Assembly: GCA_035697845.1 (NCBI GenBank)
Contig: DASSCI010000005.1
Span: forward strand, 8,262 to 72,261
DNA: 64,000 nucleotides
Source: Candidatus Limnocylindria bacterium
GTDB lineage: Bacteria > Chloroflexota > Limnocylindria > QHBO01
Reading direction: 5' to 3'
Shown here: positions 2,897 to 62,464 of the stretch, in pieces
How the letters are laid out: each line of letters opens with the position of its first letter
How positions within the stretch are numbered: the stretch's first letter is position 1
Position numbers and translations under genes: made by a program
Notes under the pieces: generated by a model
The model's input: the letters and a program-made list of their open reading frames with translations, nothing else
Databases searched by the model: none
Told to the model about the DNA's origin: nothing

Positions 2897-3835
2897 CTAG
2901 CCGGCCCGAGCCGCATCGCGCTCGAGGTTGAGGGCCCGCTTCGCCTCGAACCGCGACGCCTGCGCGTCGAGGTCGGTGAGGAATCGGCGCAGCTCCTCGC
3001 GCCGGAGCTCGGCCGATGCGTCGAGGTTGGTCAGGCCGAAGATGCCCCAGTGGGTGAGCAGCGGCCAGACGACATCGTCGTGGTGGACACGCAGGTCATA
3101 GATCCCGGCCTTCGCCATCTGGGCTGCCTTGCGCGTGAAGCTCACCATGCCGGCGCCGGGCATTCGGAAGCCGATGACCTCGTCGGCGACGGCGTGCACC
3201 GCCGCCGACGGATCGATCTTCATCGCCTCCGACAGCATGTCGCGGTAGAAGACCATGTGGAGGTTCTCGTCGGCCGCGATGCGGGCCATGATCCGATCGG
3301 CGACCGGATCGGCGGAATAGCGGCCGGTGTTGCGGTGGCTGATGCGCGTCGCGAGCTCCTGGAAGGCGACGTAGGCGAGGCCGCGGAGGACGTTGCCACC
3401 GTCGTCGTGGTCGTAAGCGATCTGCAGCTGGTTCATGCGTGAGCGCTCGAGCGCGTACGGGTCGATGTTGCGCGTGACCACGAGATAGTCACGCAGCACG
3501 ATGGCATGGCGTCCCTCCTCGGCGGTCCATCGGTTCACCCAGTTGATCCACGGTCCGTCGCCACGGCCGAACATGCGGTGGATCTCGCGGTGGTAGCTCG
3601 GCAGGTTGTCCTCGGTGAGGAGGTTGACCTCGAACGCGATCTGCGCGACGCCGCTGATCCGCGGCTGGTCCGGCGTCCACGGCTCCTTGTCGTAGTCACG
3701 TCCGAGCGAGTACGGGACGTAATCGTGCGGGAACCACTCTCTCGCCATGCCGAGGTGGCGATTGAGCAGGCGTTCGGCCACGGGCTCGAGCTCGGTGAGG
3801 AGGTCGCGCGGCTGAGTGAAGGCTGGCGTCGTCAT
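2897..3835 (-). CDS. Acyl-ACP desaturase (soluble diiron, ferritin-like; DesA-type)
   Basis: 312 aa. EEGRHAIVLRDYL and EENLHMVFYRD-type diiron-binding helices are present, with overall similarity to stearoyl-ACP desaturase. Confidence 0.8.
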   Translation of the reverse strand: MTTPAFTQPRDLLTELEPVAERLLNRHLGMAREWFPHDYVPYSLGRDYDKEPWTPDQPRISGVAQIAFEVNLLTEDNLPSYHREIHRMFGRGDGPWINWVNRWTAEEGRHAIVLRDYLVVTRNIDPYALERSRMNQLQIAYDHDDGGNVLRGLAYVAFQELATRISHRNTGRYSADPVADRIMARIAADENLHMVFYRDMLSEAMKIDPSAAVHAVADEVIGFRMPGAGMVSFTRKAAQMAKAGIYDLRVHHDDVVWPLLTHWGIFGLTNLDASAELRREELRRFLTDLDAQASRFEAKRALNLERDAARAG

Positions 3836-10462: not shown

Positions 10463-10954
10463 ATGCAGCTTCGCGTCGGCGTCGTCACCGCGGTCTTCGT
10501 GTGCGCCGCGCTGCTCGTGGCCGACGTCGGCACGGCCGCGACGGCGATCGGGCCGCCGCTCCCAAAGGGCGCGAGCCCTCCGGCGCCGGCCGTGGAGCTG
10601 CCGCAGGCCCGGCCGCCGGAGCGTGGAGCAGTGCTCGCCGGCCATCCCGAGGGCTCGCCCAGCGACGAGATCGTCGGCACCGCGAGCAACTACGCCGGCA
10701 CCGCCGGCTGGATGGGCCAGGCGACGGTCGCCCTGCCGGGCGCGCTCGGGGGTCGCTATGACGGCCAGGTGAACGGCCACGTGACCGTCTGCGCCGAACG
10801 CTGCGCGCGGCTGCCGGTGGTCGACTGGTGCCACTGCTACTGGGACACCGGTGACGAGCGCATCGTCGACCTGTCGCACGCCGCCTGGGAGCTCGTCAGC
10901 GACGCCCCACTCGCGGAGGGACTGATCGAGGTTCGCCTCCAGCTCGACGACTAG
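10463..10954 (+). CDS. Secreted protein with RlpA-like double-psi beta-barrel domain (putative)
   Basis: 163 aa with an N-terminal signal/TM segment. GTASNYAGTAGWMGQATVALP...RIVDLSHAAW resembles the RlpA/DPBB pattern (G.ASWYG...TA.GE...IDLS.AA). Confidence 0.45.
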   Translation: MQLRVGVVTAVFVCAALLVADVGTAATAIGPPLPKGASPPAPAVELPQARPPERGAVLAGHPEGSPSDEIVGTASNYAGTAGWMGQATVALPGALGGRYDGQVNGHVTVCAERCARLPVVDWCHCYWDTGDERIVDLSHAAWELVSDAPLAEGLIEVRLQLDD

Positions 10955-10957
10955 CGG

Positions 10958-11404
10958 CTAGGAGCAGCTGACCGTCACCTCGGTCGGCTCGACCTGGAGC
11001 CCGGGGATGGTCTCGGTCTGCTCGGTCGTCGCGCCGCCCTCGATCGGCAGCGTGATGGCGCTGCGCGTGCGCAGCCGCTCGCCGGCATCGCCAAGCGCGA
11101 CCAGCTGGCACTTGGCGCGGCCCGCGCGCGTGCCCTCGTTCGTGACGGCGAAGGTGATCGACCAGCCCGGATCGGCGGCGTGAACCTCGTTCACCTGTGC
11201 CGCATACGGCCCCACGCCGCGGAACGAGAGGCTCGCGGCGAAGGCGAGTGCGGCCACGGCCAGCACGATGGCCACGGCCACGGTGCCGTGATACTGGGAC
11301 GCGGACGGCGCCACCATGCCAGCGCGATTGCAGACCTCGCAGATGGATTCGTCGGCGCCGATCTCGCGCCCGCACTTGATGCAGTTGCGCGTTTCGGCGC
11401 TCAT
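10958..11404 (-). CDS. Hypothetical membrane protein with N-terminal zinc ribbon (CxxC...CxxC)
   Basis: 148 aa. It has CIKCGREIGADESICEVC, a TM helix and an extracytoplasmic domain. Its start overlaps the stop of the upstream DUF1684 gene (ATGA), suggesting translational coupling. Confidence 0.55.
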   Translation of the reverse strand: MSAETRNCIKCGREIGADESICEVCNRAGMVAPSASQYHGTVAVAIVLAVAALAFAASLSFRGVGPYAAQVNEVHAADPGWSITFAVTNEGTRAGRAKCQLVALGDAGERLRTRSAITLPIEGGATTEQTETIPGLQVEPTEVTVSCS

Positions 11405-53603: not shown

Positions 53604-53696
53604 GGAGAGGTCGCATAGTGGCCTAGTGCGGCGGTTTGCTAAACCGTTGAAGGGGGTAAACCTCTTCCGAGGGTTCGAATCCCTCCCTCTCCGCCA
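53604..53696 (+). tRNA. tRNA-Ser (anticodon GCT)
   Basis: GGAGAGG acceptor, anticodon loop TTGCTAA, long variable arm, GGGTTCGAATCCCTC, and an encoded CCA. Confidence 0.9.
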
Positions 53697-53727: not shown

Positions 53728-53803
53728 GTGCCCGTAGCTCAGTGGATAGAGCGTCAGGTTGCGGACCTGAAGGTCGGAGGTTCGAGTCCTCTCGGGCACG
53801 CCA
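53728..53803 (+). tRNA. tRNA-Arg (anticodon GCG, i.e. G34 rather than the usual bacterial A34/ACG)
   Basis: GTGCCCG/CGGGCAC acceptor, D-arm GCTCAGTGGATAGAGC, anticodon stem TCAGG/CCTGA with loop TTGCGGA, T-arm GGAGGTTCGAGTCCTCT, and an encoded CCA. Confidence 0.85.
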
Positions 53804-57334: not shown

Positions 57335-58837
57335 TCAGATCCAGCACCACCCGCGCGGCGGATCGCCCTCGCTGGTCGAGTCGTCCGGCAATGACCGCGT
57401 CGCCGTCCCACTGCCGGCGCAATCGGAGAACAGGATCCGCGTCCGCCAGGCGCCGGGGTCCATCGGCAGAGCGGTCAGCATCGGCAGGTAGAAGGCGAAG
57501 CTGGCGACCACCAGCGCGCCAAACGCGATCGTCGTGACCCGCCCCGCCATCCGCGACCAGGCCCACCCCGCGAAGCAGCCCATGGCGATGCACAGGAACG
57601 GCACGGTCGGCAGGAAATACCAGATGAACGTCTGGCTGCGATCCCCGGACAGGATCAGCCAGGGCAGGTAGGTTGCCGCCGCGGCAAACAGGACCGCTGG
57701 CTCGGGACCCAGGATCCGCCAGCCGCTGCGCCACCACGTGACGAGCAGTCCCGCGAAAGCCACCAGGCCTGGCCACCACACCAGTGGATTTCCCAGCGCA
57801 AGGATCTCGCGGTAGGTCCCGCCCTCGGCGCTGAACCAGAAGGCCACCGGTCGCTTCAGCAGCGGCCACGCCCACGGTGGCGACTGATACGGGTGGTTGC
57901 CACCGAGCTGCGTGTGGAAGTCGAGCATCGCCTGCTGGTGGTCCCAGATGCCGCGCCACACGGAGCCGGCCTGCCAAGGCAGTGCGACGATCGCGCCGGG
58001 CATGCGCCCGGTGTAGCTGGCCATGTACACGAGCACGGGCACCATGCCCAGCAGGATCAGCGTTGGCAGCGCCTCGCGGCGGACCGCCTGCGTGATCCAG
58101 CCGCTCCAGCCATCGTCCGGTGCCGCGCGGCGCCTCTCGGCGATCTCCCAGGCGATGACCAGGCCGATGACCGCTGGCGCGACGTAGGCTCCGGACCACT
58201 TCGTCGCCGCGGCAGCGCCGATGCAGACGCCGGCAACCAGCCGCCACGGCCGTCCGAGCGTCAGGCGCCACCACCACTCCTCGCGCTCGATTCGCGGCCG
58301 ATCGCGGTCGAGCACGATCGCCAGGACCGCGCCAATGACGAACAAGGTGATGAAGGCATCCAGCATTGCGATGCGCGAGTGGACCAGGTGCAGGAAATCG
58401 GTCGCCAGCAGGCCGGCCGCCGCGAATGCGCCGACCGTGGCGCCGCGCGGTCCGGTCAGGCCGCGCAGCAGACCCCAGGCGAGCAGGTAGACGAGCGCGA
58501 CGCTGATGATGCCGGCCACCGCGGACGCCACCCGCCAGCCGAAGGGCTCGTATCCGAAGGCAGCGATCCCCGAGCCGATGAGCCACTTGCCCAGCGGTGG
58601 ATGCGCGCGGCTGACGAGGTCGGTGATCCCGCACGCTGACTCCGTGCCATACACGTACCAGCACGCATCCTGAGCGTAGAAGATCTCATCGAACACCAGG
58701 CCGATCGGCCGGCCCAGGCTGACCAGCCGCAGGGCACCTGCCCCGACGACCAGCAGCGCGAGCAGCGCCGTGTCGATCCGGGTCCAGGCGGGTCGCGACG
58801 CATTGGACACGTCGCACATCCTAGGCGTGGCCGCCAC
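57335..58837 (-). CDS. Dolichyl/polyprenyl-phosphate-mannose--protein mannosyltransferase (GT39, PMT family)
   Basis: 500 aa polytopic membrane protein. LVFDEIFYAQDA (PMT DE motif in loop 1), the GT-C topology and a C-terminal luminal region match the PMT family. Confidence 0.75.
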   Translation of the reverse strand: MAATPRMCDVSNASRPAWTRIDTALLALLVVGAGALRLVSLGRPIGLVFDEIFYAQDACWYVYGTESACGITDLVSRAHPPLGKWLIGSGIAAFGYEPFGWRVASAVAGIISVALVYLLAWGLLRGLTGPRGATVGAFAAAGLLATDFLHLVHSRIAMLDAFITLFVIGAVLAIVLDRDRPRIEREEWWWRLTLGRPWRLVAGVCIGAAAATKWSGAYVAPAVIGLVIAWEIAERRRAAPDDGWSGWITQAVRREALPTLILLGMVPVLVYMASYTGRMPGAIVALPWQAGSVWRGIWDHQQAMLDFHTQLGGNHPYQSPPWAWPLLKRPVAFWFSAEGGTYREILALGNPLVWWPGLVAFAGLLVTWWRSGWRILGPEPAVLFAAAATYLPWLILSGDRSQTFIWYFLPTVPFLCIAMGCFAGWAWSRMAGRVTTIAFGALVVASFAFYLPMLTALPMDPGAWRTRILFSDCAGSGTATRSLPDDSTSEGDPPRGWCWI

Positions 58838-58890: not shown

Positions 58891-59331
58891 TCAGTCGAGG
58901 CCGGGGGCGTGAACCGGCAGATCGCCGGTGCGCGCCAGCTCCTCCTGGCAGGAGAGCCGATCGAGATCGCGCGGCTCGGCGCGCCACAGCAGATACCGAT
59001 AGTGATCCGAGACGTGGCGCAGCCGCTCGCGCGTGTACTCATTGGTTGGGCGCAACCAGGCGTCCTGTGCGGGCAGCCCGTGGCCGGGCACGAACTGGAA
59101 GGACACCTGCTTGCCCGCGCAGCTGGTGACGACGGTGTAGCCACCCTCCCAGGAGGGGTCGAGCTTCTGGACCGTCCAGCCGGGCAGCCGATCGCTGACC
59201 TCGCCGAGCACGGTGGCACGACCGAGATCCGGAACCACCGGAATCGGCGCGAGGTATGCGATCAGGAAAGCGGCAGCGAGGGACGCGGCGACGACCAGCG
59301 CCCGCGATCGGCCGTGCAGGATGCGGGACAT
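58891..59331 (-). CDS. Hypothetical membrane-anchored protein
   Basis: 146 aa with an N-terminal TM helix, immediately upstream of the PMT gene on the same strand. Confidence 0.45.
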   Translation of the reverse strand: MSRILHGRSRALVVAASLAAAFLIAYLAPIPVVPDLGRATVLGEVSDRLPGWTVQKLDPSWEGGYTVVTSCAGKQVSFQFVPGHGLPAQDAWLRPTNEYTRERLRHVSDHYRYLLWRAEPRDLDRLSCQEELARTGDLPVHAPGLD

Positions 59332-59477
59332 ATGAGCTCGTTCGAAGGCTATGGAAGCGGCAGCATCACGCCGCCGGATGCCAATCTCCGAATGCAGGAT
59401 CCGTACCGACCCTCTGCTAGACTCGCTCGACCGGCGCCACGGAATCGGTGACGTCGGATCGCCAGAGGCGGACCGAG

Positions 59478-59918
59478 ATGAACTACGAACTTTTCATGGC
59501 CGAGGCGATCGCCGAGGCGCGACGAGGCGGCGAGGAAGGCGAGGAGCCGATCGGCTCGGTCGCCGTGATCGACGACGCGATGATCGCGCGCGACCATGAC
59601 CGATCTGCCCTCCAGGGCGACCCGACCGCGCACGCCGTCCTCCTCACCGTGCAGGCCGCGGCCCGCAAGCTCGGGACTCGACGCCTGACGGAGGCGACGA
59701 TCTTCACCACCCACGAGCCGTGCGCGATGTGCGTCGGCGCCCTCGTCGAGGCGCGCGTGCGGGCCCTCGTCTTCGCCGTCCCCGATCCCGAGCGCGGCGC
59801 CGCCGGCAGCGTCCTCCAGCTCGCGCGCGAGTCGTCGCTGCCGCACCAGATCTCGGTCGTGTCCGGCGTGCGCGAATCGGAGGCGCGGCGGCTGGCGACG
59901 GAGTCCGCATCGGTCTAG
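59478..59918 (+). CDS. tRNA-adenosine-deaminase (TadA/CDA-fold) homolog with the catalytic Glu replaced by Val (HAE->HAV)
   Basis: MNYELFMAEAIAEARRG...PIGSVAVID...DPTAHAVLLTVQAA...THEPCAMCVGAL aligns with E. coli TadA (DPTAHAEIMALRQ...TLEPCVMCAGAM). The zinc ligands H/C/C are kept, but the Glu codon is GTC (Val). The alternative GTG start is at 59448. Confidence 0.75.
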   Translation: MNYELFMAEAIAEARRGGEEGEEPIGSVAVIDDAMIARDHDRSALQGDPTAHAVLLTVQAAARKLGTRRLTEATIFTTHEPCAMCVGALVEARVRALVFAVPDPERGAAGSVLQLARESSLPHQISVVSGVRESEARRLATESASV

Positions 59919-60028
59919 CCTCGCCCATCTCGTTCTCGGGGAGCCACGAGTCGCCCGCCGTAGGGCAGCCCACGCGTCGGAGCGCCTTTTGGCGGCACGA
60001 CAGCACTCGGCTAGAATCTCGTCGGCGC

Positions 60029-60118
<90 letters not shown>

Positions 60119-60134
60119 TCGTCACATCAAGCCC

Positions 60135-60222
60135 GGAGAGGTCGCCTAGAGGCCTATGGCGCGGCACTGGAAATGCCGTTCGGGGCAACCCGTCGAGGGT
60201 TCGAATCCCTCCCTCTCCGCCA
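60135..60222 (+). tRNA. tRNA-Ser (anticodon GGA)
   Basis: GGAGAGG acceptor, anticodon stem CGGCA/TGCCG with loop CTGGAAA, long variable arm, GGGTTCGAATCCCTC, and CCA. Confidence 0.9.
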
Positions 60223-60498: not shown

Positions 60499-60527
60499 AT
60501 TGACCGATGCCGCCGCGCAACCTACCA
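60499..60527 (+). promoter_or_regulatory. Putative promoter of SRP RNA: TTGACC - 17 bp - TACCAT
   Basis: The -10 ends 8 nt before the predicted 5' end of the SRP RNA (60536). Confidence 0.5.
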
Positions 60528-60535
60528 TCGCGGCC

Positions 60536-60805
60536 GGTCGTGCTAGGCGGGGAACTAGCGGTGCCCTGTATCCGCAATCCGCTACAGCGGAGCTGAACTC
60601 CCGGTCGAGGTCCGCACCGTTCGCCAACCACCACCGTGCCCGACGTTGAAGGTCGGGTCCCGCGCAGCGTTGGTCCGTGAACCCCGTCAGGTCCGGAAGG
60701 AAGCAGCGGTAAGCGATCGCCTTCGGGTGCCGCGGGACAACCTGGCCGGAGCCGGGCACGTGGGTGAGTGCGAGCTGGTGCGGTTCGACACCGGGTGCAC
60801 GACCT
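60536..60805 (+). ncRNA. ffs: Signal recognition particle RNA, long (Bacillus scRNA-like) form with Alu domain
   Basis: The helix-8 core GTCAGGTCCGGAAGGAAGCAGC is at 60687..60708. The 5' Alu-domain segment GTCGTGCTAGGCGGGGAACTAGCGGTGCCCTGTATCCGCAATCCGCTACAGCGGAGCTGAACTCCC closely matches B. subtilis scRNA (GCCGUGCUAAGCGGGGAGGUAGCGGUGCCCUGUACCUGCAAUCCGCUCUAGCAGGGCCGAAUCCC). The 3' end GGGTGCACGACC pairs with the 5' end. Length is ~270 nt, and the gene sits immediately upstream of dnaX as in Bacillus. Confidence 0.8.
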
Positions 60806-60865
60806 ACTCATCCTCCTCTCGCCGGCCGATGCGGCCGCGCCAATCGGTGTACGGTAGCCCTCGTC

Positions 60866-62464
60866 ATGCCCGCAGCCCCGTCCACGCCCGACGCCGTGCC
60901 CGGCGAGCCGGCCATCGCGCACCGCGCCCTGTATCGGCGCTTCCGCGCCCAGCGTTTCGGCGAGCTGGTCGGGCAGGATCCGATCGTCACCACCCTTCGC
61001 CACGCGGTCAGCGGCGAGCGCCTGGCGCACGCCTATCTCTTCGTCGGGCCGCGCGGCACGGGGAAGACCTCCACGGCGCGAATCCTGGCCAAGGCCATCA
61101 ACTGCACGAACCTCGGCGATGATGGCGAGCCGTGCGACACCTGCCCCTCCTGCGTCGCCATCCGGGACGGCCGCGCGCTCGATGTGATCGAGATCGACGC
61201 CGCGTCGCACGGGTTGGTGGAGGACGCCCGCGACCTCGTGATGCGGGCGCTGACCGCGCCATCGGAGCTGCGAAAGCGGGTGTACATCATCGACGAGGTC
61301 CACATGCTGAGCACGCACGCCTTCAATGCGCTGCTCAAGCTCATCGAGGAGCCTCCCGACCACGTCGTCTTCATCCTGGCCACCACCGACACGCACAAGG
61401 TGCCGGCCACGATCATCAGCCGCACCCAGCGCCACGACTTCCGTCGCCTTCCCGAAGCGACGATCGTCGGCAAGCTGCGCCGCATCATCGCCACGGACGG
61501 CCTCGACGCCGATGACGACGCCCTCGCCCTCGTCGCGCGCCTGGCCGATGGCGGCATGCGCGACGCCGAGTCCCTGCTCGACCAGGTGCTCGCCTTCACC
61601 TCAGGTCGCCTGACCATCGACGACGTGCGCGAGGCCGTCGGCCTGGCCGACGAGGCGGTCATCAGCGAGCTCCTGGACGCGTATGAGGCCGCTGACGCCG
61701 CCGCGGCGCTCGACCATCTGGCCGCCATGGCCGATGCCGGCCGCGACCTGGCGCAGGTCGCCGCGCAGGCCGAGGCCGAGGCACGCCGCCGGCTGCTGGC
61801 CTCCGCGTCCGATCCCGCGGCAGCCCGCCGGCTGGCATTCACGCTCCGGTCGCTGGCCGAGGCCGCGGGCGCCGGCGCGCGCGAAGGACGCGCCCGGCTC
61901 CTTCTCGAGCTGCTCGCCGTCGAGCAGCCTGGAGCCGCGCCAACACTGCCGGTCGCCACGGTCGCACCGGCACCACGCGCACCCGCCCCCAAGCCGCCAC
62001 CCGTTGCGAAGCCGGCCGACCCGCCTGCGGCGCGCGTGGAGCCGGCAGCGCAGACGACCCCGACGCCAGTGCCGATGGCGGCCGGCGGTGGCGCCGATGT
62101 TGCCGAGATGCGCTCACGGTGGGTCGACGTCGTCGAACGCGCCAGCCCCGTCATCAAGCCGCTGCTCAAGGAATGCCGTCCCGTCGCCCGCGACGGGGCA
62201 CGCCTGACGCTCGCATTCCCGGAGGGGCGCGACTTCATGCGTTCGCGCATTGCCCAGCGCTCTGCGCAGATCGAGGCGCTGCTGACCGACATGTTCGGCG
62301 GCTCGTTCGCGATCGAGTGCGTCGCCAGCAATCTCGAGCTCGAGCCGCTCACGGTGGCCCAGGCCGTTGGCAACCCCGACGACGACCCCGAGGCGCGGGC
62401 GCTGCTCGAGGGCGTCCTGAAGATCACCGGCGGCGAGCTGGTCGACGCGCCCGAGGTGCGTTGA
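60866..62464 (+). CDS. dnaX: DNA polymerase III subunits gamma/tau
   Basis: Start at MPAAPSTP. YRRFRAQRFGELVGQD, LFVGPRGTGKTSTARILAKAINC (Walker A), the zinc module CDTCPSCVAIRDG, DEVHMLS and SRTQRHDFRRL match DnaX. A Pro/Ala-rich linker and C-terminal tau domain follow. Confidence 0.9.
   Translation: MPAAPSTPDAVPGEPAIAHRALYRRFRAQRFGELVGQDPIVTTLRHAVSGERLAHAYLFVGPRGTGKTSTARILAKAINCTNLGDDGEPCDTCPSCVAIRDGRALDVIEIDAASHGLVEDARDLVMRALTAPSELRKRVYIIDEVHMLSTHAFNALLKLIEEPPDHVVFILATTDTHKVPATIISRTQRHDFRRLPEATIVGKLRRIIATDGLDADDDALALVARLADGGMRDAESLLDQVLAFTSGRLTIDDVREAVGLADEAVISELLDAYEAADAAAALDHLAAMADAGRDLAQVAAQAEAEARRRLLASASDPAAARRLAFTLRSLAEAAGAGAREGRARLLLELLAVEQPGAAPTLPVATVAPAPRAPAPKPPPVAKPADPPAARVEPAAQTTPTPVPMAAGGGADVAEMRSRWVDVVERASPVIKPLLKECRPVARDGARLTLAFPEGRDFMRSRIAQRSAQIEALLTDMFGGSFAIECVASNLELEPLTVAQAVGNPDDDPEARALLEGVLKITGGELVDAPEVR

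Follow-up and report, generated by a model that had tools for sequence, protein, structure and literature searches.

A TadA ortholog of Limnocylindria with valine at the catalytic glutamate position, kept class-wide together with tRNA-Arg(GCG)

The tadA-like gene and its protein

A stretch of 64,000 nucleotides from contig DASSCI010000005.1, referred to here as the window, carries a tadA-like gene in which the catalytic glutamate codon is replaced by a valine codon. Judged by the source names of close homologs and by the titles of genome records, the window belongs to Candidatus Limnocylindria, one of the classes of Chloroflexota. TadA is the tRNA(adenine34) deaminase of bacteria, which converts the adenosine at anticodon position 34 (A34) of tRNA-Arg(ACG) to inosine (I34). 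Its active site contains a His-Ala-Glu (HAE) motif, whose Glu serves as the proton shuttle, and a PCxxC motif that supplies two further zinc ligands. In the window protein, the first motif reads His-Ala-Val (HAV). The gene and the codons of its zinc site are as follows.

59478..59918, forward strand: tadA ortholog with HAV for HAE, a predicted pseudo-deaminase of 146 amino acids (aa) with a TadA fold (open reading frame (ORF) and translation)
59631..59633, forward strand: codon of His52, the zinc ligand of the HAx motif (100% in the HAV clade and in canonical TadA)
59637..59639, forward strand: codon GTC of Val54, at the position of the proton-shuttle Glu (E59 of E. coli TadA), from the sequence and from alignments to TadA structures
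59721..59732, forward strand: codons of Cys82 (59721..59723) and Cys85 (59730..59732), the Cys zinc ligands of PCAMC (100% in the HAV clade and in canonical TadA)

The ORF starts with ATG and ends with TAG. The ATG at 59478 is favoured over a GTG at 59448 because the N-terminus MNYEL is kept in orthologs. The protein carries the motifs DPTAHAV and HEPCAMC, and its top family match is the NCBIfam TadA equivalog NF008113 with 111.8 bits, which is under the cutoff of 150. Pfam matches are MafB19-deam and dCMP_cyt_deam_1, and the NCBI name on the orthologs is 'nucleoside deaminase'. Solved TadA structures are matched by sequence with E-values of 1.3e-31 (7cph, B. subtilis), 3.3e-27 (2b3j, S. aureus), and 1e-23 (1z3a, E. 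coli). A first-pass annotation of the window, made from the sequence alone, had reported the Glu-to-Val replacement with retention of the zinc ligands, and both observations hold. It had also described an alignment with TadA along the whole length; this is correct for residues 2-140, but the final 15-25 residues of canonical TadA are absent, including the FFxxxR of the C-terminal helix.

The AlphaFold model of the HAV protein has a pLDDT of 90.8 and a pTM of 0.88, and its confidence is lower only in the 101-120 loop and at the C-terminus. The top Foldseek matches are bacterial TadAs, with a TM score of 0.93 for 7cph and likewise 0.93 for 2b3j, so that the TadA-type cytidine deaminase (CDA) fold is present together with the zinc ligands H(A)x...PCxxC. 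In the model, the C-terminal helix comprises residues 133-144 only, and the protein starts two residues ahead of helix 1. The protein is acidic, with an isoelectric point of about 5.2, and the mean net charge of HAV proteins is -5.3, compared with +0.4 in canonical representatives.

Distribution, tRNA-Arg(GCG) and gene order

The distribution of the HAV motif was surveyed in one genome per GTDB species, which gave 80 loci with 57-98% protein identity, and up to 10 kb on either side of each locus was read (998 kb). H-A-V followed by PCxxC was found at all 80 Limnocylindria loci. The Glu of the HAE site is invariant in canonical relatives, both in HAE-motif cluster representatives (125/125) and in Rhodothermus-type relatives (114/114), and Val in 80 of 80 related genomes is therefore not a chance replacement. 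The 120 closest protein clusters at 90% identity (82-98% identical to the window protein) carry H-A-V, with one H-A-I. Among 1.84 billion cluster representatives, the motif is HAV in those sequences whose identity to the query reaches 47% or more; in the 150 best matches, all others with a motif that could be read are HAE (19 HAV, 125 HAE). In a neighbour-joining tree with the catalytic column masked, the Limnocylindria HAV clade is monophyletic, contains no HAE member, and is nested among bacterial TadAs. A deeper member (L083, 54% identity) has an HAV-type gene, the same gene order, and tRNA-Arg(GCG). The HAV trait is class-wide and is not a local oddity.

The second component of the finding is the arginine tRNA, which lies upstream of the gene next to a serine tRNA.

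53604..53696, forward strand: tRNA-Ser(GCT), upstream neighbour of tRNA-Arg(GCG), with the same pair at 52 related loci
53728..53803, forward strand: tRNA-Arg(GCG) with an encoded CCA end (ARAGORN; Rfam, 70.6 bits), anticodon at 53761..53763 and G34 at 53761

ARAGORN and Rfam found five tRNAs in the window, and 53728..53803 is the only tRNA-Arg. Both programs and the anticodon loop UUGCGGA support the earlier assignment of its anticodon as GCG, with G34. In the survey, a tRNA-Arg lies inside the readable flank at 56 of the 80 loci, and its anticodon is GCG in 56 of 56. At the conserved tRNA-Ser(GCT)-tRNA-Arg locus, GCG thus stands in place of ACG in the window and at all 56 related loci, and the correlation between HAV orthologs and tRNA-Arg(GCG) raised by the first-pass annotation was found. 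No A34 tRNA of any kind occurs in the 998 kb of flanks. The anticodon loop is invariant at 50 loci and the anticodon stem shows compensatory changes, which indicates that tRNA-Arg(GCG) is a working tRNA. BLAST of this tRNA against E. coli genomes gave six weak tRNA-Arg matches and was uninformative on orthology.

Ten more Joint Genome Institute (JGI) metagenome contigs pair tRNA-Arg(GCG) with a TadA-like gene, which has HAV in eight and a motif that was not resolved in two. A metagenome scan with the Limnocylindria tRNA-Arg body returned 80 loci with G at position 34 in 79, C in one, and A in none, which is weak evidence: the pattern fixed U32, which canonical ACG tRNAs usually do not have, and it also matched low-GC lineages. 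Contigs of 41-48% GC (L088, L090, L093, L102, L104, L117, L132, L138, L154, and L165) carry a tRNA-Arg(GCG) that matches the Limnocylindria pattern of D-stem and anticodon arm. In L117, GCG occurs together with tRNA-Arg(UCG), and in L142, of the same GC range, a tRNA-Arg with anticodon CCG matches the pattern alongside UCG. Their source is at least one further lineage, either bacterial or archaeal, in which CGN is decoded without inosine.

Arginine codons in 46 long ORFs of the window are used at frequencies of 0.54 (CGC), 0.24 (CGG), 0.09 (CGT), 0.085 (CGA), 0.04 (AGG), and 0.01 (AGA). CGA makes up 8.5% of Arg codons and cannot be read by G34, so another decoder is needed, and a tRNA-Arg(UCG) is predicted. 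The use of tRNA-Arg(GCG) instead of ACG has been described in Thermotogae, Spirochaetes, and some Mycoplasma (PMC8007984, PMC3711424). In Mollicutes of the Pneumoniae group, ACG was replaced by GCG plus UCG, and tadA was lost (PMC3711424). In contrast, Limnocylindria kept the gene in all 80 genomes in a form that is, by its sequence, catalytically disabled.

The surroundings of the gene indicate its ancestry. Downstream of the tadA-like gene, the window contains the following features.

60029..60222, forward strand: tRNA-Ser(CGA) at 60029..60118 and tRNA-Ser(GGA) at 60135..60222, starting 110 nt past the tadA-like stop codon
60538..60802, forward strand: large signal recognition particle (SRP) RNA (Rfam RF01854, 178 bits)
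about 60764..62464, forward strand: dnaX, followed by ybaB-like and recR-like ORFs and the start of the 16S rRNA (63752.., RF00177), from ORFs and Rfam

The tandem tRNA-Ser pair and its distance from the gene agree with the earlier annotation. The gene order of the window is thus tadA-like, two tRNA-Ser genes, large SRP RNA, dnaX, ybaB-like, recR-like, and 16S rRNA. It matches the order in B. subtilis, namely tadA(yaaJ)-scr-dnaX-yaaK-recR-rrnA. The tRNA-Ser(CGA)/(GGA) pair is kept at nearly all related loci and also beside a canonical HAE tadA in L082. In that contig, tadA is followed by the two tRNA-Ser genes and adjoins the SRP RNA, dnaX, ybaB, and recR, with dnaX-ybaB-recR on the opposite strand. 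Because the HAV gene sits at the ancestral tadA locus, it is a positional ortholog of tadA and not a paralog.

An HAE sister with a syntenic tRNA-Arg(ACG) was sought among several candidates. None of them provided it. L082 shares the tadA/tRNA-Ser/dnaX context, but a tRNA-Arg is absent from the surrounding 10 kb. L084 and L085 are from an organism that is unrelated and of low GC content, and P0179, the nearest neighbour in the neighbour-joining tree, lies on a chimeric contig of 888 bp.

The tadA-like gene appears to be monocistronic. Downstream of it, the tRNA-Ser pair and the SRP RNA each have a promoter-like site in front of them, at 59989..60017 and at 60500..60528, compared with 0.1 expected in shuffles. 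The longest dnaX ORF, with a GTG start at 60764, overlaps the 3' end of the SRP RNA by about 40 nt, and the true dnaX start is therefore probably further downstream. Upstream, two divergent ORFs are located on the reverse strand. The first (58891-59331) encodes 146 aa, has the look of a membrane-anchored protein, evolves fast, and occurs in 36 of 67 loci. The second (57335-58837) encodes 500 aa, resembles a PMT-type glycosyltransferase by appearance, and occurs in 49 of 67 loci. No functional link between these upstream ORFs and the tadA-like gene is apparent. Elsewhere in the window, positions 3450-3517 on the forward strand match the Rfam family ASdes, a mycobacterial small RNA (sRNA), with 51.8 bits at a gathering score of 40. 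The match is antisense to a 312-aa ORF (2897..3835, reverse strand), presumably an acyl-ACP desaturase by its looks, and may reflect conservation of the coding sequence, not an sRNA.

Residue conservation and purifying selection

We consider it likely that the HAV gene encodes a selected pseudo-deaminase, which was kept after the switch of tRNA-Arg from ACG to GCG. Residue conservation and selection were compared with this reading and with its rivals, and positions in the conservation comparison follow the numbering of E. coli TadA unless the window protein is named.

The zinc site and the base pocket are strictly conserved. E59 is Val in 100% of the HAV clade, and the pocket scaffold D53-P54-T55-A56-H57-A58 and E85-P86-C87-x-M89-C90-x-G92-A93 is kept at 98-100%, as are G112, A114, and G115 of the GAAG loop. 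Cys82 and Cys85 of the window protein are encoded by TGC or TGT over the orthologs. About 20 positions are conserved solely in the Limnocylindria lineage, including N2, Y3, E4, L5, E9, D32, A34, M35, R42, K64, and E91.

Such a pocket could in principle still serve an enzyme, in which the zinc site acts on a new substrate (a free base, a nucleoside, or another RNA position) through a different general acid or base. Its zinc ligands and pocket are stricter than a purely structural role might need: A114 of the GAAG loop (A109 in the window protein) is kept in 99% of the HAV clade, compared with 30% of canonical TadAs. The pocket-lining Leu84 position before EPC (His79 in the window protein, codon 59712-59714) is now His in 68 of 77 orthologs, Cys in 5, Arg in 3, and Asn in 1. 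The protein is also structurally close to guanine and guanosine deaminases. Against this, the catalytic Glu is present in every canonical relative counted above, and, to our knowledge, every characterised CDA-fold deaminase requires the Glu of HxE/CxE. The linear motifs around the zinc site contain no acidic residue conserved in the HAV clade alone, and the Asp found in place of N46 reaches just 68%. Both His and Cys are residue types that can bind zinc, and by analogy with Asp348 of ADAT3 (PMC8216470), the His or Cys at position 79 could equally be a fourth zinc ligand that closes the site. New zinc chemistry is accordingly a doubtful explanation, and on the chemistry known for the CDA fold the HAV protein is very probably inactive as an A34 deaminase.

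The residues by which TadA holds the anticodon loop show the opposite pattern and are relaxed, replaced, or deleted. N46, present in 99% of TadAs, is Asp in 68% of the HAV clade and otherwise variable. V28 is variable, R98 is conserved in just 55%, and K110 is lost to Glu, Arg, or Asp. N127 is also lost (Pro in 69%), both F148 and F149 vary, and R153 is missing. In the structure of S. aureus TadA with RNA, contacts are made by R70 and R94 with the backbone of G37 and G36 and by K106 and N123 with the C32-A38 pair; E. coli TadA touches the anticodon loop with the part of the protein around H57, K111, and F149 (PMC3711424). The contacts relaxed in the HAV clade are R94, K106, and N123 of S. aureus and the F149 position, which correspond to R98, K110, N127, and F149 of E. 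coli. The short C-terminus was rejected as a decisive sign of lost RNA binding, as the deposited chain of Agrobacterium TadA (2a8n) is equally short; the argument for a lost grip on the tRNA consequently rests on the lost conserved residues. Overall, the HAV protein shares with canonical TadA (1z3a, 2b3j, and 7cph) the fold (TM about 0.93), the zinc ligands, 30-42% identity, and a locus beside tRNA-Ser, SRP RNA, and dnaX. It differs by the absence of the catalytic Glu, N46, K110, N127, F148/F149, and R153, by its score under the NCBIfam cutoff, and by its acidity.

A second, independent HAV clade of six clusters (P0135, P0281, P0283, P0288, P0292, and P0309) is nested among HAE TadAs of the Rhodothermus/Longibacter type, to which it is 62-80% identical. 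It keeps the EVPVG motif and the C-terminal helix in part. The clade is variable at V28, N46, L84, R98, K110, N127, F149, and R153, which are essentially invariant in the 114 HAE relatives, and most of these positions are those relaxed in Limnocylindria. The like erosion in a second lineage suggests that Glu-to-Val replacement followed by loss of the tRNA-contact surface is a repeatable path. P0135 corresponds to positions 3276-3740 of L081, a contig of 6 kb and 62% GC with an ADI-family gene upstream and no tRNA.

The gene could also be a decaying relic, freed from selection after the tRNA switch and heading for loss. The loss of Glu and of several tRNA contacts, the deletion of the C-terminal helix motif, and the loss of tadA in Mollicutes that switched to GCG (PMC3711424) would fit such a course. 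The reading frames do not. They are complete at 78 loci class-wide, and 77 of the 78 encode 144-150 aa; two loci are cut by contig ends, and one long-read metagenome-assembled genome has a frameshift. The Val codon over 78 orthologs is GTC in 39, GTG in 35, and GTT in 3; the remaining entry is frameshifted and has CAC. Three synonymous codons turn over beneath an unchanged amino acid, which indicates that Val itself is maintained. The Nei-Gojobori ratio of nonsynonymous to synonymous substitution (dN/dS) comes to about 0.04 between the closest pairs and to about 0.2 overall, as well as where dS is 0.3-1.0; in absolute terms these values are approximate, since partial saturation or compression of dS is probable at 70% GC, and this counts against our reading.

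A comparison with dnaX, the neighbouring replication gene, leads to the same result. Across 58 genomes, mean identity to the window protein is 80.0% for the TadA-like protein, compared with 79.1% for the DnaX ATPase core (r = 0.91), and at the deepest splits the values are 61-62% and 52%. The upstream divergent ORF is just 54-67% identical where the TadA-like protein is 82-88% identical. The HAV gene is under strong purifying selection and is not decaying. Together with the near-invariant zinc ligands and pocket and the lineage-specific residues, this effectively excludes a relic, the least plausible of the rival explanations. The first-pass annotation had suggested that the organism does not need A34 editing of tRNA-Arg and that its TadA is degenerate; the lost need is supported, but 'degenerate' does not describe a gene conserved like dnaX with its Val kept. 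Retention of the HAV protein for a selected function is thus highly likely.

Comparison with ADAT3 and interpretation

The same Glu-to-Val replacement is known from Tad3/ADAT3, the eukaryotic paralog that works only with active ADAT2. The structure study of mouse ADAT2/ADAT3 traces the inactivity of ADAT3 to the replacement of Glu by Val, to lost tRNA determinants, and to a C-terminal helix so short that the C-terminus can cap the zinc; an N-terminal domain has taken over the binding of tRNA (PMC8216470). The HAV protein has in common with ADAT3 the Glu-to-Val replacement with kept zinc ligands, the shortened C-terminal helix, and the lost tRNA-recognition determinants (PMC8216470, PMC3239186); FFxxxR is missing, and N46, K110, and N127 are lost. 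The likeness noted in the first-pass annotation is real in the sequence and reflects convergence with the deaminase domain of ADAT3. Searches do recover ADAT3 chains as homologs, though as weaker matches than TadA (7nz7_B, 3e-15 by sequence; TMq 0.83 by fold). The HAV clade does not share descent with eukaryotic Tad3: its nesting among bacterial TadAs indicates an origin independent of ADAT3.

The HAV protein might accordingly be the dead subunit of a heterodimer with an active CDA-fold deaminase that edits an A34 tRNA or mRNA. Besides the shared features, conservation is strong enough for an obligatory subunit. Early adenine base editors function with engineered TadA dimers in which E59A has inactivated one of the subunits, which also favours this explanation. 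The locus is less favourable, since the gene occupies the ancestral tadA position as an ortholog and is not itself an added paralog. The orthologs of 144-150 aa have no N-terminal tRNA-binding domain, which ADAT3 needs for tRNA (PMC8216470). A hidden Markov model built from 71 canonical TadAs matched only the known ORF in a six-frame translation of the 64-kb window, and in the flanks, about 1 Mb in all, tblastn gave no further strong match to TadA. The substrate also appears to be missing: the HAV lineage shows no A34 tRNA in these flanks, every tRNA-Arg found is GCG, and the presence of an A34 isoacceptor reportedly excludes that of a G34 isoacceptor and vice versa (PMC8007984).

An extra CDA-fold ORF of 160 aa with intact HPE...CPMC was found at 10680-11162 (forward strand) in L010 and at the same place in L012, between the tRNA-Ser pair and the SRP RNA and beside the dead tadA; it does not occur in the window. 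This deaminase was rejected as a general partner, as it scores 31.8 bits against TadA and is present in only 2 of 80 genomes. The proposal of a Tad3-like partner of a second, active deaminase, also made in the first-pass annotation, thus found no support in the window or the flanks. We regard it as unlikely, although it ranks first among the rivals, ahead of new zinc chemistry and the relic.

The selected pseudo-deaminase is the reading that we favour, and it may be outlined as follows. In the class ancestor, position 34 of tRNA-Arg would have changed from A to G at the conserved tRNA-Ser(GCT)-tRNA-Arg locus. CGU and CGC would then be read by tRNA-Arg(GCG) without an I34 tRNA, as is seen at the conserved tRNA locus and as is presumed for the whole genome, and CGA and CGG would fall to other isoacceptors, for which UCG and CCG are the predicted anticodons. 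Once A34 was gone, deamination by TadA would have become dispensable. The ortholog would have lost its proton-shuttle Glu and then its grip on the anticodon loop; both residue losses are visible in the sequence, and the resulting loss of activity is expected from known CDA-fold chemistry. The gene persists with an intact zinc site, a conserved base-pocket scaffold, and lineage-only residues. Its product would act as a zinc-containing TadA-fold pseudoenzyme, probably still a dimer, whose retained pocket, along with a conserved surface that is new, would bind some ligand or partner distinct from the canonical anticodon loop of tRNA-Arg. It is moderately likely that this function is non-catalytic binding, not new chemistry or ADAT3-like partnering.

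All of the evidence is comparative, and several points weigh against the selected pseudo-deaminase. The tRNA and deaminase inventory covers the window and the flanks, which leaves room elsewhere in the genomes for a tRNA-Arg(ACG), another A34 tRNA, or an HAE TadA. The predicted tRNA-Arg(UCG) was not seen in the Limnocylindria window or flanks and came up only on 44%-GC contigs of another lineage. The inactivity of the HAV protein is a prediction from its residues. No partner, ligand, or operon context points to a new function, and conservation of the upstream neighbours is only partial. Mollicutes with the same tRNA switch lost tadA (PMC3711424), so retention needs a lineage-specific reason.

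A stronger form of the proposal is that the dead TadA is an essential non-catalytic factor, either as a bacterial analogue of ADAT3 that pairs with an active deaminase yet to be found, or as a zinc-pocket 'reader' of G34 or another nucleotide that controls tRNA-Arg(GCG) or translation. This is speculative and rather improbable. If true, the TadA fold would have a general latent binding function that is exposed when catalysis becomes dispensable, as the independent Glu-to-Val replacements in ADAT3, Limnocylindria, and the Rhodothermus-like lineage would suggest.

TadA is treated as a near-universal, essential, and single-purpose bacterial enzyme, and comparative surveys take any detected TadA homolog as active (PMC6063277). 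No description of a bacterial TadA without Glu, or of tRNA-Arg(GCG) in Limnocylindria or Chloroflexota, was found in the literature. The present data suggest that a class of bacteria abundant in soil and freshwater now decodes CGN without inosine, in which case the annotation 'tRNA(adenine34) deaminase' would be wrong for hundreds of genomes. They also suggest that the catalytic death of TadA need not end in gene loss. Conservation on the level of the essential replication gene dnaX makes a second, non-catalytic role of TadA probable, and the Limnocylindria lineage would isolate this role naturally, like a separation-of-function allele. Several features of ADAT3 inactivation, namely Glu-to-Val replacement, a shortened or altered C-terminal helix, and lost tRNA determinants, recur independently in bacteria, and this recurrence offers a workable model of the possible origin of the eukaryotic pseudo-subunit.

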